64,000 bases of DNA. Origin: a virus. The DNA is taken from positions 1 through 64,000 of the IMG/VR virus record IMGVR_UViG_3300028840_004217; one strand, 5' to 3'. Below are positions 16,400 to 48,024 of this stretch, one piece after another (the first letter of the stretch is position 1; the number at the start of each line of letters is the position of its first letter). The position numbers and the translations under genes are program-made. Under the pieces are notes generated by a model. That model made no database searches. It was not told the origin of the DNA and saw nothing but the letters and a program-made list of their open reading frames with translations.

Positions 16400-16481
16400 G
16401 AATCGCTATGCCCGCGACCTGCTGGCCGCGCCTGTCGTCTCAGGCGGGCCGTCGGCTGACGGCCCCGCACACTCACGATTC
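16400..16481 (-). ncRNA. repeated four-way-junction RNA motif, copy 1
   Basis: GAAUCGU-GAG-UGUGC-G-[GGGCCGUC/GACGGCCC]-G-[CCUG/CAGG]-[CGCGGCC/GGUCGCG]-G-GCAUA-GCGAUUC. Confidence 0.75.
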
Positions 16482-16711
16482 GTCATCGATCTTGAATGAG
16501 TCGATGAGGTCCTGGTTCAGCTTCATACCTGTGGGGCTGACGGCGATCACGAAGATCATCATGCCGTCCTTGTTCTGCACCGGCTCGGTAAGTTCAATCA
16601 GATAGTGTCCGTAAAACGAGTGCAGCTTCTCAAGGACCGTACCGAAGGTTCTGAACTCACCGTTCTGGTTCATCAGCACCACCGGATCACCGATGTCATA
16701 TTTGATCTGGC

Positions 16712-17254
16712 TCATTTGTTCTCTCCTTTGACAGCCGCCGCTTCCAGGCTGTTCAGTGCTTTCCACTCACCCACCAGTTGCACCGGCGTCTGATCGACGT
16801 TGCCGGAACAGGGGTGGTAGTTGGTCGGGTTGATCTTACATTTGTACTCGCCCTCCACGCCGCAGACGGGACAGCGATACACGTACATCCTCTGGTTGGG
16901 CCGCTCGTACTTGTGCGTCGAGAAGTCGCGTCCGAATACCTTGAAGGACCATCGTTTGAACTCTGGCCCGTGGTTCACCGGGCGGTCATTCACCACCTGC
17001 CAGAGGTGAATCATTTCGTGTGCCAGGCAGTCGTCCAGCATCGTCTCACCCTGCTGGCGGTAGTACGGAACCGATACGCGGATGACCACGCGGCTCATGT
17101 CGTCTCTGAGCCTGGGGTAGTGAATGTTCGCGCCTGCCCGCGTCATCGATGCGTTCCACTCCAGCCGCACCGGAGGCAACTCGTTGTCGAAGAACATCGC
17201 GTTCAGTTCATCGAATGCCCGGTACAGTATCGCTTGTGATGGTAGGCTCGCCAT
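16712..17254 (-). CDS. SprT-like zinc metalloprotease
   Basis: FDELNAMFFDNELP...LAHEMIHLW...HGPEFK...YRCPVCG. Confidence 0.85.
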   Translation of the reverse strand: MASLPSQAILYRAFDELNAMFFDNELPPVRLEWNASMTRAGANIHYPRLRDDMSRVVIRVSVPYYRQQGETMLDDCLAHEMIHLWQVVNDRPVNHGPEFKRWSFKVFGRDFSTHKYERPNQRMYVYRCPVCGVEGEYKCKINPTNYHPCSGNVDQTPVQLVGEWKALNSLEAAAVKGENK

Positions 17255-17277
17255 GTGCCTGCTCCTCGTGTTTGGTT

Positions 17278-17354
17278 GCGCTATGCCGATGACCGCTTCG
17301 GCCACCCCCGTTGTATCGGGCGGGCGACGTTTCCGCCGCCCCGCACACTCACGC
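17278..17354 (-). ncRNA. repeated four-way-junction RNA motif, copy 2
   Basis: Same conserved junction nucleotides, different stems, GAAA tetraloop. Confidence 0.75.
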
Positions 17355-17759
17355 GGACTCTGGTGCTTCTTTCGCCGGGACGATTTCTGGCGGGATCGGA
17401 TTGGCGTCGGCCCAACGCTGGACCATCTTGCCGACCATCATCGCTATCGTGAGAGCGTTCAGGTGTCGCTCTGCTGATACGAGATGCCAGTCGTTACCGT
17501 CACCGATCACGCGGACCGGCGTCCACTCACGACGGAACAGACCTGAACCGTCCTCCAGGCGTTCAAAGGAACCGCCATCAGGAACTGTGTCATACGGAAG
17601 GTATACTGAAACGCTGCGGCTGCTCGACCACTCGGCCTCAACCGGCGTCCAAACTATTTCGATTGTACCTTCTGACTGATGCTTGTACGTCAAACCGTCG
17701 TTGGCCTCTACCATCGTTTTCAGTGTGGCCTCTTGTTCTGCTGTGGGTTGATAGTGCAT
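17349..17759 (-). CDS. hypothetical protein
   Basis: ACAAGGAG RBS; its stop codon is the UGA inside RNA motif copy 2. Confidence 0.6.
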   Translation of the reverse strand: MHYQPTAEQEATLKTMVEANDGLTYKHQSEGTIEIVWTPVEAEWSSSRSVSVYLPYDTVPDGGSFERLEDGSGLFRREWTPVRVIGDGNDWHLVSAERHLNALTIAMMVGKMVQRWADANPIPPEIVPAKEAPESA

Positions 17760-17784
17760 CGTACTCTCCTTGTGAATGATTGAA

Positions 17785-44902: not shown

Positions 44903-45443
44903 TGCCGTACAGTGAACGAACCAGGCGGATCATGCACGTCGTGATACCGGGGGCCATCATCATCATCGCGGGCCTGGCCTTCGCCTTCATGATCCTCGGG
45001 ATAGGCGGTGAGTGACGTGGCCTATGAGATGCAGGTGCTGTTCGTGATCATCGCCCTCGTCGTGCTGTGGTGCGGCCTGGGTGACGGGTGGCTGGCCCGC
45101 ATGCCGGGCGGCTATTGGTGGACGGAGCACGCCCACCTGGTGGTCCTCTGTCTGCTGCCCCTGTCGTGGGGCTGGTGGGTCGTGCCCTTTTGGGCGTTCG
45201 GCGTGTACGCCTATGCCGACGATTTCTACCAGCACCGGAGGCGCATCCGGCCCGGTGAGGAAAACTACCGTTCGCCCCTCCACCTGTGGGCGTGGTATAC
45301 GCTGCGGCTGGACAAGGTGTACGAGTGGCTGGGCATAGACCGATAGGGGGCCGTCGATGAACCGGATGGTGTCGCGCGGCCTCATCAGCGATCGCAACAA
45401 AGCAACGATACTGAAATTTGAACGCATACGGAGGATGGGCCTG

Positions 45444-46187
45444 ATGTCATTCAGTGATTTCGACCTGGCGCGTGGCGCCGATGAAAATGTGGGCCTGGAC
45501 GGTAAGTTCGGGTATTTCGGAGCCGTCACCACGGGGGGCGACGACATCTGGACGCTCGGCGGCGCATACTCCGGACATATCACGGCGGGCGCGTCGATAG
45601 AGGCCATCAGCGACGACGGCAACGACGACGACGGCGGATCCGGCTGTCAGATCATCACGGTGCAGGGACTCGCGCCCGTCACCCTGGCCGAGATCAGCGC
45701 GGACATCAACATGAACGGCACGGACCCCACGGCCTACGCGAACAAGCAGTTTTTCCGCGTCAACCGGTTCTTCCCGAAGGACGGCGGCGTGGGCACCTAC
45801 CACGGCAACAATGCGGGCAACATCTGGGTGCGGACGGCTGCTGGCATCACCCTCTCCTACATGGAGGCCGGCTTGGGCCAGACGGAGCAGTCGCATTTCT
45901 GCGTGCCTGCGGGCAAGCGGGCCTACCTGGACAACCTGGAAGCGTATGTGGAAACGACCAAGGCGGCGGAGCTGCGCCTATGGCAGTCCCGGAATGCCGA
46001 CGACGTGACCACGCCGTTCAGCCCGAAGCGGCTGGTGCGCCGGTTCACGGGTCTCACCGACTACACGCCCCACGACCTGCACCAGTTGGAGATCGAGGAA
46101 AAGACGGACGTGTGGTTGGAGGGCATATCATCAGCGGGTACGGCGGCGGTGGCGACGGTGCTCGATTATAAGTTGAGCAACATTTAA
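45444..46187 (+). CDS. conserved phage virion-associated protein
   Basis: KFGYFGAV...DIW...DDGGSGCQIITVQGL...FFRVNR...GQTEQSHFCVPAGK...IEEKTDV. Confidence 0.55.
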   Translation: MSFSDFDLARGADENVGLDGKFGYFGAVTTGGDDIWTLGGAYSGHITAGASIEAISDDGNDDDGGSGCQIITVQGLAPVTLAEISADINMNGTDPTAYANKQFFRVNRFFPKDGGVGTYHGNNAGNIWVRTAAGITLSYMEAGLGQTEQSHFCVPAGKRAYLDNLEAYVETTKAAELRLWQSRNADDVTTPFSPKRLVRRFTGLTDYTPHDLHQLEIEEKTDVWLEGISSAGTAAVATVLDYKLSNI

Positions 46188-46562
46188 ATGAAGGAGGCGT
46201 TCGTGGACATCGTGATCATCATTCTATACTTCTATTTCTGGAGCGTGGTGGGTCTGCTGATACACCTGTTTAAGTCGATCAGCGTACGGCGCGGCTACAT
46301 CAAGGACTACGGCCTGCGGCGGTATCTGGCGGACCACGCCTATGCGCTGGCGGCCACGCTCCTGTTCCTGCTGGTGGCGGCGCAGCAACACGCTACGGGC
46401 GTGCCCGACATATTGGGCAAGGTACTCGTCATCAACGACACCACCAAGGAGTTCCAGTACGCGGTGATCGGCTTTTTCTCTATGACCATCTTGAAGTGGA
46501 TAACAGAGGTGGGCAAGACGCGGCTGGAGCGTTTCATCAAGAGTGTTCCCCAAAAATCCTGA
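46188..46562 (+). CDS. membrane protein
   Basis: Three hydrophobic segments. Confidence 0.5.
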   Translation: MKEAFVDIVIIILYFYFWSVVGLLIHLFKSISVRRGYIKDYGLRRYLADHAYALAATLLFLLVAAQQHATGVPDILGKVLVINDTTKEFQYAVIGFFSMTILKWITEVGKTRLERFIKSVPQKS

Positions 46563-46564
46563 TT

Positions 46565-46625
46565 TAATCGAGAAGGGGCCATAAATGCGTTCTAACGGCA
46601 TTTGGCCCCTCAGGTATATAATCAC
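46565..46625 (-). repeat. 61-bp element, inverted copy of 12890-12950
   Basis: 49/61 identity; internally palindromic (aggggcc..aaatgc / gcattt.ggcccct). Confidence 0.8.
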
Positions 46626-47945
46626 ATAGCCACGCGTCCGTTTCTGCTGTAGCGATAGGAAAGCGTGGCCGCAATCCTACCTTCCGTCCTCCCCCTCCTC
46701 GAACTTGCGCGACTTCACGATCTCAGCGATGGCCCGTTCATCCGCCTTGGACCGCCACGCCAGATAGGTCTGCTCGTCCGACAGGTGTTCCCGCAGTTGC
46801 TTGATGGCGCTGGCCTGGCCCTCCCGTATGTTGCGCGCCTCCTTGCTCTCGGCAGACCGCACCATCCGCTTGTATTGCTCCTCCAGCTCGGACAGATACC
46901 GCATGAAATGATTCCAGCTCGCGTAATAGTGCATCAGTGTTTTCCTCCCGTCAGCCGGTCCCACTGTCTGTGGAACGCGGGTTCCCAACGCTTCTTGGTC
47001 ATGACCGTGAATACGAGCAGCACCGCCAGGGCCGACAGCTTCAGCGGATGCGTCTGGTAGGCGGGGAAGCCGTAGTAGGCCGACGCCCCGCACATGGCCC
47101 CTATGATTATACACTTGATGAAGTACAACATCAAAGCCTCCGTATGTGGGACATGGCGTTCTCGACCGTCAGGATGGTGAAATCCTGGAGGCCGCTGTGC
47201 TTGCACATGTCTATGATCTGATCGTCCGGTACACCGGCGGTCATCATCTCCTCGACGGCCTCCAGCAGACCGGGCATGTTGTTCTGCAAGGTCTCATAGC
47301 TGATCCGCTCGACCTGCTCGGTCAGCGTGGGGTTCAGGATGGGCTCCGTCATGACGCCTCCTCTTTGAGGGGTACCAGGTGCGGGTAGTGCGTGATCAGG
47401 TGGCGCAGCAAGCCCTCGGCCTCCTCGCGGCTCAGCCGGTTGATCTTGAGGGCCACGTCGGTCGCCGTCCGCTTCTCGAACATGAACGTATTGGCCAGGT
47501 TGTACGCGCCCTCTATGTCCTCCAGCCAGGCCATGTAGTCCTGGTGCTCGGCGTGCTGTTGCTCGAAGGCCCGCTCGGACGCCTTCTCATTCTCCCAATG
47601 TTCGAGGATGACGTCCGCGAATCGGTCGGCCGTCTGCGCCAGCGACTCCTTCTTGCGTTCCCGGTACTGCTTGCGACTGCCGTAGTTGCCTATGGTCAGG
47701 TGGGCCGTGTTCTCATATTGGGTGCGCCAGCCCGTGCCCCGGTTGATCGGCTTGAACTCGGTCCACACCAACGTGCCGTCGATGCGGTCGACGCGGAGGG
47801 GGCTGCGCTCCACCTCATGGCCGTGTGCCTGGAGGACGTGAACCACCATGTCGACCACGCCCTTGACATAGGACCGTGCGGCGGCGTTGTTCGCGTCGCG
47901 TTCCTTCTGATCATAGATTGTCATGATGCTCTCCTCGTGCTTGGT

Positions 47946-48024
47946 TGTGCTATGCCGACGGTTCTTTCGAGCCGCCCCCGTTGTTTCGGGCGGGCCGCTG
48001 ATCGCGGCCCCGCACACTCACACA
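47946..48024 (-). ncRNA. repeated four-way-junction RNA motif, copy 4
   Basis: UGUGU-GAG-UGUGC-G-[GGGCCGC/GCGGCCC]-G-[CCCG/CGGG]-[GGCGGCUC gaaa GAACCGUC]-G-GCAUA-GCACA. Confidence 0.75.

Follow-up and report, generated by a model that had tools for sequence, protein, structure and literature searches.

The genome of an uncultured 92-kb phage carries five copies of a motif of about 80 nt, all intergenic and on the sense strand between small early genes, which folds in prediction into a conserved four-way junction and is a good candidate for a new element that cuts or processes RNA. Four of the copies lie in the window, i.e. the whole stretch of DNA analysed (64,000 nt, positions 1 to 64,000 of IMG/VR record IMGVR_UViG_3300028840_004217). 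The first-pass annotation had placed these four on the minus strand between early genes, and both the sequence and the covariance-model matches (81-92 bits, E 1e-15 to 1e-20) bear out strand, coordinates and placement. Its copy number of four is however corrected to five per genome, as a further copy is found outside the window (genome 90532-90608). A covariance-model search of the 92-kb genome up to E=10 returned nothing besides these five. Window positions 732-744 have a fragmentary 5' resemblance only, without the junction fold, and are a decayed relic at most. In contigs from three DNA runs the phage is identical and the motif is without variation. The motif copies of the window and their surroundings are as follows, all on the minus strand.

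14800-16323, minus strand: AAA ATPase gene, downstream of copy 1
16330-16338, minus strand: ribosome-binding site (RBS) stretch CACAAGGAG, after copy 1
16368-16396, minus strand: early promoter TTGACA-17-TATATT, directly after copy 1, heading the AAA ATPase gene
16400-16481, minus strand: motif copy 1 (model match 16401-16480), outer stem GAAUCGU/GCGAUUC
16473-16766, minus strand: ORF whose stop is the UGA of copy 1 (16473-16475)
16712-17254, minus strand: SprT-like metalloprotease gene, between copies 2 and 1
17262-17270, minus strand: RBS stretch CACGAGGAG, after copy 2
17276-17356, minus strand: motif copy 2 (core 17278-17354), covariance-model match; next ATG at 17254, 21 nt downstream
17349-17759, minus strand: ORF whose stop is the UGA of copy 2 (17349-17351)
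17766-17774, minus strand: RBS stretch CACAAGGAG, after copy 3
17785-17864, minus strand: motif copy 3, covariance-model match; next ATG at 17759, 25 nt downstream
17857-18135, minus strand: ORF whose stop is the UGA of copy 3 (17857-17859)
18565-18593, minus strand: early promoter TTGACA-17-TATATT, heading the operon with copies 3, 2 and 1
47931-47939, minus strand: RBS stretch CACGAGGAG (G-variant), after copy 4
47945-48025, minus strand: motif copy 4, covariance-model match; next ATG at 47924, 20 nt downstream
48026-48505, minus strand: ORF ending in UAG just ahead of copy 4, the UGA of the motif being unused
48810-48838, minus strand: early promoter TTGACA-17-TATATT, heading the operon with copy 4

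The layout around the motif is regular. The upstream stop codon ends -16 to +7 nt from the first base of the element, and the next start codon follows after 16-34 nt, or after 77 nt where a promoter intervenes (locus L101 included). The UGA of the motif is itself the upstream stop in three of the four window copies, as had been annotated, and also in copy 5. The G-variant CACGAGGAG also follows copy 5 and is found nowhere else in the genome; the unit common to copies 2, 4 and 5 is extended and takes in this RBS. More widely, CAC[AG]AGGAG has 21 sites in the genome against 2.0 expected, and a start codon follows 20 of them. The motif is present at only 5/21 of these extended-RBS gene starts and is thus not needed for early expression in general. 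Copy 1 is at the very end of an operon, and its 3' end is separated by 4 nt from the -35 box of the next promoter (16368-16396). The sequence of this promoter recurs at 18560-18607, where assembly contigs join. No Pfam family was found for the flanking ORFs 17857-18135, 17349-17759, 16473-16766, 48026-48505 and 47349-47924. GTG-initiated ORFs within the motif, with products beginning MCGAA, are artefacts of the conserved GUGUGCGGGGC.

The consensus given by the first-pass annotation is correct against the copies and the alignment: outer stem, U-GAG bulge, UGUGC, G, GGGC..GCCC hairpin, G, CCYG-ANRCRA-CRGG, variable hairpin, G, GCAUA-G, outer stem. Every copy folded singly gives the same four-way junction (-40.6 to -48.7 kcal/mol, z -2.75 to -4.85). 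The plus strand of the copies folds less stably (-28 to -37.7 kcal/mol), and therefore the minus strand, already proposed as the RNA sense, is the structured one. The covariation that had been claimed is real. In the four-copy alignment, changes on both sides are seen in 10/27 pairs, and in an alignment of 8 sequences, fitted to the model and with low statistical power as it holds about 6 independent sequences, in 16/28 pairs. In the latter, 95.5% of pair cells are paired, versus 38-43% with the partners slid.

Sequence variation differs between the parts of the fold. P2, P4 and the outer stem vary, P2 and P4 being very stable GC hairpins, and the bulge, inner P1, junction Gs and P3 hairpin are fixed (about 35 invariant nucleotides). 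The invariant set comprises U.G, the RAG bulge, UGUGC/GCAUA, the three junction Gs and the P3 hairpin with its loop A-N-R-C-R-A; the P3 helix is backed by a U-A/C-G swap. The bulge is flanked by conserved wobble pairs, and the 3' strand opposite it is fully paired in 8/8 sequences. The outer stem and P1 together make 8-12 bp, broken by the bulge, and coaxial stacking on P2 could give 17-20 bp. The bulge remains RAG where it does not serve as a stop codon (copy 4, L095 and L098), and the core is near-identical in a distant phage with an ATPase 33% identical. These two observations together point to selection on the RNA itself.

Several known element types can be set aside. Copies 2 and 4 lack, by reading, the G.A pairs required after the bulge of a K-turn. 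The frame after the UGA closes at differing places with no conserved extension, against a SECIS element or stop-codon readthrough, and the lengths of P2 and P4 vary by non-multiples of 3. A riboswitch sequestering the Shine-Dalgarno sequence does not fit, as the motif has no anti-Shine-Dalgarno string and the RBS is outside it. Against Rfam 15, neither the entire window nor the remainder of the genome nor the homologs gave a match at gathering score or at E<=10. ARAGORN found 0 tRNA or tmRNA genes, and RF00005 matched nowhere in the genome at E<=1, whereas 14/14 control genomes had a match. The core string of the motif is absent from the searchable literature. The first-pass view of an unrecognised family thus stands, and the motif appears to be a previously undescribed RNA, although it may overlap one of the 8,495 unnamed candidates of the 2023 IMG/VR structured-RNA catalogue (PMC10690425).

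The family is rare and patchy, with the five copies of this genome plus one orthologous locus in the distant relative with the 33% identical ATPase. At this independent metagenome locus the motif is likewise intergenic and on the sense strand. The AAA ATPase served as the clade marker for finding relatives. No copy was found in the 80 related viral records, nor in GenBank phages or 185,579 species genomes, in searches that did not extend to contigs with the nearest ATPase homologs (47-50% identity). Model-filtered exact-pattern scans of IMG/VR gave 0 true matches, a pattern scan of genome contigs gave 8 matches, all <=22 bits, and all blastn matches in GenBank phages had E>=0.8. The Tunturiibacter phage Tunturi_3 has no copy. 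Weak model matches (L096, L123, L148 and similar) are chance; L096 and L123 fall within ORFs or run antisense to a gene, and the z-scores of their folds are -0.9 to -1.6.

In relatives, the same gene-boundary niche is held by known ribozymes. Rfam type II hammerheads are present in 5/80 of the related viral records (28.6-44.2 bits, 3 records above gathering score), in the same early region, on the sense strand and with the same stop-element-RBS-start layout as the motif. The stop is at -20 to +1 nt and the next start is 9-44 nt downstream in 5/7 hammerheads; of the remaining two, one has its next start at 97 nt and the other lacks a called upstream ORF. In G035, two hammerheads are 560-1100 nt upstream of the ATPase gene, roughly the position of copies 1-3 here. 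The G069 hammerhead and the L095 motif share the interval from the ATPase gene to a conserved gene, but the hammerhead is about 1.6 kb off the orthologous junction, so that only a shared niche is supported. The motif-bearing phage has no hammerhead or other Rfam ribozyme (best RF02276 score genome-wide 13.7 bits, away from the copies), and the niche is thus otherwise unfilled in it. In prophages, clustered hammerheads flanking genes were shown to cleave polycistronic transcripts of ~2 kb, and the proposal was made that they divide long phage RNAs into mRNAs of gene length (PMC3088659). The equivalence of niche between motif and hammerheads is an analogy, and gives circumstantial support for a self-cleaving ribozyme or a processing/stabilising element, as the first-pass annotation had suggested.

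The motif is itself distinct from these ribozymes. Like the type II hammerheads (RF02276; Perreault et al. 2011, PMC3088659) it is sense-strand, intercistronic, multi-copy and patchy. However, hammerheads (RF02276/RF00008/RF00163) have a three-way junction with the core CUGANGA ... GAAA ... NUH, and the motif is four-way without that core, its copies having no Rfam match to a hammerhead at gathering score or E<=10. Its sole hammerhead-like string, CYGANRC, falls inside the P3 helix. With twister-sister (RF02681; Zheng et al. 2017, PMC5660989) it shares the outline of a closing helix, an unpaired element, a short helix and a four-way junction, and on one arm a conserved hairpin loop for which docking on the unpaired element is conceivable. 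In twister-sister, the L1 loop is two-stranded (GCAAG facing GCUCAU, the scissile step being C-A) and the SL4 loop is GUGCAAGUC (PMC5660989), whereas the motif has only a 3-nt bulge in the 5' strand, a fully paired 3' strand and the loop A-N-R-C-R-A. Without L1 and SL4 features, and without a match to RF02681 at E<=10, the motif is not a twister-sister ribozyme.

Phage early regions offer two further comparisons. The RNase III signals of the T7 early region (R0.3-R1.3) are structured elements between the cistrons of an early polycistronic transcript made by host polymerase, where they fix the ends of the mRNAs and make the products more stable. The motif resembles them as a structured element between early cistrons. 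The T7 sites are however single irregular hairpins, with about two turns of duplex and an internal loop, at which host RNase III cuts. The motif instead joins several helices around a conserved core, and no uninterrupted duplex of ~20 bp is evident in it. The PeSL (promoter-early stem-loop) of T4-type phages, which Arbiol et al. reportedly described in 2010, is said to form repeated structured junctions, each with a stem-loop coupled to an early promoter, bounding small early-gene cassettes in variable regions. Copy 1 is similar in adjoining an early promoter, but a promoter is present at 1/5 copies only, copies 2-4 having none in the gap to the next start, and the motif is a conserved four-way junction and not a simple stem-loop; it is thus not a PeSL module.

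In the reading that we prefer, and to which we give an even chance, the motif is a cis-acting intercistronic processing module that punctuates early polycistronic mRNAs. This reading is favoured by the compensatory change in the stems together with the invariant core, by the intergenic sense-strand placement and regular layout of the copies, by the hammerheads in the same niche of relatives and the lack of any Rfam ribozyme in this phage, by the published prophage hammerheads, and by the signs of selection on the RNA. Host RNA polymerase would start at the strong TTGACA-17-TATATT promoters and read through runs of small genes, and at some gene boundaries the nascent RNA would adopt the four-way junction. 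P2, P4 and the outer stem would serve as scaffolds of freely varying sequence, and the invariant bulge, P1, junction Gs and P3 hairpin as a recognition or catalytic core. A cut at a defined site downstream of the bulge-embedded stop codon, made by the RNA's own catalysis or by a host endonuclease, would part the upstream cistron from the downstream message. The latter would then carry a compact structure at its head, followed 16-34 nt later by the CAC(A/G)AGGAG RBS and a start codon. That the motif RNA is cut at all is an inference, as are the site and the agent of the cut. More tentatively, by analogy with the hammerheads, the motif may represent a new structural class of self-cleaving ribozyme used by phages in place of hammerheads on early polycistronic mRNA. 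In that case, the conserved P3 loop might dock on the RAG bulge/P1 region to make an active site, and the early mRNA would be cut into single-cistron messages.

Two other explanations also place the function in the message itself. An element that is never cut, and as a passive insulator or stabiliser blocks 3'-5' exonucleases with a GC-rich three-hairpin junction, insulates cistrons and gives the RBS a constant context, is rather unlikely. It would keep the ribosomes or structure of one cistron from disturbing the next, and the stability of P2 and P4, the standard RBS that always comes next and the position of copy 1 at an operon's end would all suit it. For such a task simple hairpins suffice, and the invariant nucleotides, the wobble-flanked bulge and the conserved 6-nt loop would be unnecessary. 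An operator bound by an RNA-binding protein of the phage or the host, acting as a translational repressor of downstream genes or as a put-like antitermination element that modifies RNA polymerase, seems improbable. Much of the conserved sequence is in helices (P1, P2 base and P3) as well as the loop, and sequence-specific protein binding would fit this too, as would the several copies within early operons and the location of copy 1 just ahead of a strong promoter and a large gene. Nevertheless, no protein is specific to both motif-bearing lineages in the DNA compared, where the matches are the ATPase and one clade-wide gene; the motif is clear of the RBS and start codon, and three copies in 1.5 kb would be unusual for an antiterminator.

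The remaining explanations remove the function from the message. A trans-acting small RNA freed from the mRNA, be it a tRNA-like mimic or a decoy or sponge for a host defence that targets RNA, is a poor prospect, despite the compact, tRNA-sized and multi-copy junction, the ACCA after copies 2, 4 and 5, and the tRNA genes found in the same region of some relatives. The motif has no tRNA D, anticodon or T-arm features, in line with the negative ARAGORN and RF00005 results, ACCA does not follow copies 1 and 3 or the motif in L095, and a cut at the 5' boundary would strip the upstream gene of its stop codon in 4/5 copies. Least probable, and in our view very improbable, is a DNA-level repeat without RNA function, a mobile or recombination junction (MITE/REP-like, attC-like or PeSL-like) that spreads gene cassettes. 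Its patchy distribution with a near-identical core in distant phages, the extended unit shared by three copies and the location of the motif in variable small-gene regions would be expected of such a repeat. Conserved G.U pairs however make the fold strand-specific, every copy is co-oriented with transcription, and the compensatory changes maintain a complex junction and not a simple palindrome. Terminal direct repeats, an associated transposase or integrase and the attC R' core are all lacking; an integron attC is further rejected as neither border of the five copies has GTTRRRY or its complement, and the fold is a four-way junction and not a single bulged hairpin.

The known self-cleaving ribozymes of nature fall into only about ten classes, and the last three (twister-sister, pistol and hatchet) were found via conserved RNAs in the neighbourhoods of known ribozymes. 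The motif has such a setting, since in one phage lineage it fills the gene-boundary niche held by hammerheads in relatives. Cleavage, if it occurs, would make the motif a catalytic RNA with a new fold and a compact insulator part of natural origin. Even without cleavage, the motif would offer a defined way into the punctuation and stabilisation of early polycistronic messages by phages, a question standing since the 2011 report of clustered phage hammerheads.

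The four-way-junction motif is present on the minus strand at all four stretches named in the first-pass annotation, with sequence that agrees with its description, and the count of four holds for the window only. The source record is an IMG/VR virus of 92,049 bp with direct terminal repeats, the window being its first 64 kb. A covariance model (R1) built from the four window copies and searched over the whole genome gave exactly five matches (60-92 bits, E 4e-12 to 7e-20) and nothing further up to E=10; the same five came back with a broader model:

Copy 1: 16400-16481, minus strand
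Copy 2: 17276-17356, minus strand
Copy 3: 17785-17864, minus strand
Copy 4: 47945-48025, minus strand
Copy 5: genome 90532-90608 (L005:1443-1519 in the stretch that carries it), outside the window, minus strand, full motif between 90-aa and 62-aa ORFs

Copy 5 has a GCAA loop on P2 and an outer stem of only 3 bp. A near-match at window 732-744 was rejected, as it is just a fragment of the motif's 5' part and does not form the motif fold. The surrounding minus-strand region (660-760) has fragmentary likeness to that 5' part (GAGUGUGUGGGGC), with CUGUUCACC as in the P2 loop of the metagenome contig L095 and GAAUACAAC like the P3 loop; the four-way-junction fold was not found there, and the region may be a decayed copy. 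Contigs from three DNA runs yielded the identical phage only.

Folded singly, every copy gives the same four-way junction (-40.6 to -48.7 kcal/mol, z -2.75 to -4.85), whereas the complementary strand folds more poorly and less consistently (-28 to -37.7 kcal/mol). Its parts, 5' to 3', are as follows:

Outer stem: 3-7 bp, closed by an invariant U.G pair
Bulge: 3 nt, GAG (AAG in one homolog)
Inner P1: UGUGC/GCAUA, invariant, containing a G.U pair
P1-P2 linker: single G
P2: hairpin of 7-8 bp, base GGG/CCC
P2-P3 linker: single G
P3: CCYG/CRGG, loop A-N-R-C-R-A
P4: variable hairpin directly after P3
After P4: single G, then the return strands

Given the four window copies in a plain MAFFT alignment, RNAalifold arrives at this junction, and 10 of 27 pairs show compensatory change. 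In an eight-sequence alignment, which was fitted to the model and so favours it, standard pairs fill 95.5% of pair cells, versus 38-43% after a shift of the 3' partners by 1-3 columns, and both-sided changes occur in 16 of 28 pairs. Observed values were reached by 0-1 of 500 shuffles on four of five measures, and by 41 of 500 for further pair types. Conserved G.U pairs and the energy asymmetry both identify the structured strand as that transcribed with the genes. The covariation and minus-strand orientation reported earlier are thus borne out.

As had been described, early-type genes flank all copies; these are small ORFs on the minus strand. One unit runs from promoter to promoter: promoter 18593, small ORFs, copy 3, a 136-aa ORF, copy 2, a SprT-like gene (assigned by Pfam), a 97-aa ORF and copy 1. 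The -35 box of the promoter for the AAA ATPase gene (14800-16323, minus strand) follows 4 nt after copy 1. Three near-identical, strong promoters stand at the heads of early operons:

18565-18593, minus strand, sigma-70-type promoter TTGACA-17-TATATT
16368-16396, minus strand, sigma-70-type promoter TTGACA-17-TATATT
48810-48838, minus strand, sigma-70-type promoter TTGACA-17-TATATT

The AT-rich surroundings of the promoters are repeated, as is the promoter sequence itself; metagenome assemblies break or join at these sites. Near copy 5, on the opposite strand, a 186-aa ORF (L005:2255-2815, plus strand; genome about 91344-91904) includes the string GIIDGEGS, which recalls LAGLIDADG homing endonucleases.

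The motif's UGA is the upstream stop codon in window copies 1, 2 and 3, as first noted, and likewise in copy 5. This codon combines the U with the bulge's first two bases; therefore the last sense codons of the upstream ORF form the 5' strand of the outer stem. The 3' strand is non-coding and has co-varied to pair with those codons. At copy 4 the upstream ORF ends at a UAG directly ahead of the element. The next start codon lies 20-34 nt past the element, or 77 nt at copy 1, with the promoter in between.

After each of the five copies comes an extended ribosome-binding stretch, CAC(A/G)AGGAG, found at 21 sites in the genome against 2.0 expected, for example:

14169-14177, minus strand, CAC(A/G)AGGAG
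18219-18227, minus strand, CAC(A/G)AGGAG
48515-48523, minus strand, CAC(A/G)AGGAG

Because 20 of the 21 sites precede start codons, nearly all on the minus strand, the stretch is a generic early-gene signal outside the motif proper. The G-variant CACGAGGAG occurs just three times in the genome, after copies 2, 4 and 5, which also have in common AACCA directly past the outer stem; this suggests that motif and ribosome-binding stretch were duplicated as a single unit.

The Rfam comparison proposed with the first description was run. Rfam 15 gave no match at gathering score in the whole genome and none at E<=10 for the copies and homologs, and ARAGORN and a tRNA model found no tRNA. The motif's status as an unrecognised family therefore stands. 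Among searchable papers, none mentions its core string in a relevant setting; the motif may coincide with one of the 8,495 unnamed IMG/VR candidates catalogued in 2023. Hammerhead identity was rejected, the core being absent and the only similar string sitting in P3, a covarying helix. A hammerhead-like site at 18230-18293 (minus strand) lacks Rfam support, the RF02276 score at 18255-18360 being only 9.8 bits (E 3.3); a search of 17900-18700 found no hammerhead family at E<=10. The four-way form of twister-sister is similar in outline, and is defined by a two-stranded L1 loop with a C-A scissile step and the SL4 loop GUGCAAGUC (PMC5660989). However, these features are missing from the motif, in which the bulge faces a fully paired strand and the loop is different.

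The phage falls within a large clade of uncultured phages, mostly of 50-105 kb, with a common AAA ATPase. By this protein its closest GenBank relative is Tunturiibacter (Acidobacteriota) phage Tunturi_3 (33% identity), and the best metagenome protein is 50% identical. The motif was not found in Tunturi_3, in whole records of 80 IMG/VR relatives (28 at least 90% complete), in five exact-pattern, model-filtered scans of IMG/VR, or in GenBank phages; 185,579 prokaryote species, one genome each, gave chance pattern matches only. A single metagenome scan found true homologs on four short contigs (53-55 bits; 77 bits with a broader model), representing one orthologous locus from two or three closely related phages, with one extra gene inserted ahead of the motif in L098 and L099. 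The ATPase of the homolog-bearing phage is just 33% identical to that of the source phage. Bulge, P1, junction and P3 are the same in both, an invariance partly built in by a search pattern that demanded part of the core, while P2 pairs are swapped (GGGU.../...ACCC) and P4 is 17 nt longer. Thus, with the motif in two distant lineages and not in many closer ones, the distribution is patchy. For the second lineage only a small amount of DNA was available, and in it no protein specific to both lineages was found; this points weakly to an element that acts alone or with a host factor.

Type II hammerheads (RF02276) were found in 5 of the 80 relatives (28.6-44.2 bits; three records above gathering score); each lies in the early region, between early genes and in sense orientation:

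L047:8876-8942 and 9366-9441, sense strand, type II hammerheads
L065:3807-3879 and 5097-5164, sense strand, type II hammerheads
L081:12571-12630, sense strand, type II hammerhead
L041:640-708, sense strand, type II hammerhead
L051:5448-5515, sense strand, type II hammerhead

Most lie directly after a stop codon and ahead of an AGGAG-type ribosome-binding site. In the related record G035, the ATPase gene is preceded by two hammerheads, at distances of 560 and 1100 nt, which matches the place of copies 1-3; one hammerhead begins at the upstream ORF's stop codon, and both are followed by an AGGAG-type site and the next ATG. Measured with one script, the end of the upstream stop lies at -20 to +1 nt relative to the hammerheads and at -16 to +7 nt relative to the motif, and the next start follows after 9-44 nt and 16-34 nt, respectively (ATG at 24 nt in the homolog contig L101); exceptions are one hammerhead with its start at 97 nt and one without a called upstream ORF. 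The interval from the ATPase to a gene conserved across the clade holds a hammerhead in the record G069 and the motif in L095, although the junction is not identical:

13634-14086 (ORF 13199-14161), minus strand, clade-conserved gene downstream of the ATPase, conserved in 30 clade loci

In relatives this interval is a variable small-gene region holding nothing, a hammerhead (G069) or the motif (L095). No hammerhead or other Rfam ribozyme was found in the source phage genome. Several relatives (L019:4408-4480, L070:8117-8193, L046, L049 and others) have tRNA genes, often tRNA-Met, on the sense strand near the ATPase among early genes; the source phage has no tRNA gene at all.

Clustered prophage hammerheads cleave polycistronic transcripts of ~2 kb, and long phage RNAs were proposed to be processed into gene-length mRNAs (Perreault et al. 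2011, PMC3088659). By analogy, the position shared with relatives' hammerheads strengthens a ribozyme or processing reading of the motif. An intercistronic processing module has about an even chance of being correct. The variable helices would be scaffolds around a functional centre formed by the invariant core (bulge, P1, junction and P3 loop); if the RNA were cut past the embedded stop codon, the cistrons would come apart, and the 3' message would have a structured 5' end together with a standard ribosome-binding site. That the motif itself catalyses the cut, as a candidate ribozyme, is a tentative proposal and overall rather doubtful; a nuclease may make the cut instead.

A tRNA mimic would be cut at or before the 5' border, as by RNase P on a tRNA-like substrate, and such a cut would leave four of the five upstream genes without their stop codons, which counts against this reading. 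A passive insulator or stabiliser is unlikely, and a protein operator distinctly more so. Release of a small RNA seems very improbable, and a purely DNA-level repeat hardly credible. Rare and well defined, the motif is a candidate that a self-cleavage assay could examine at low cost.
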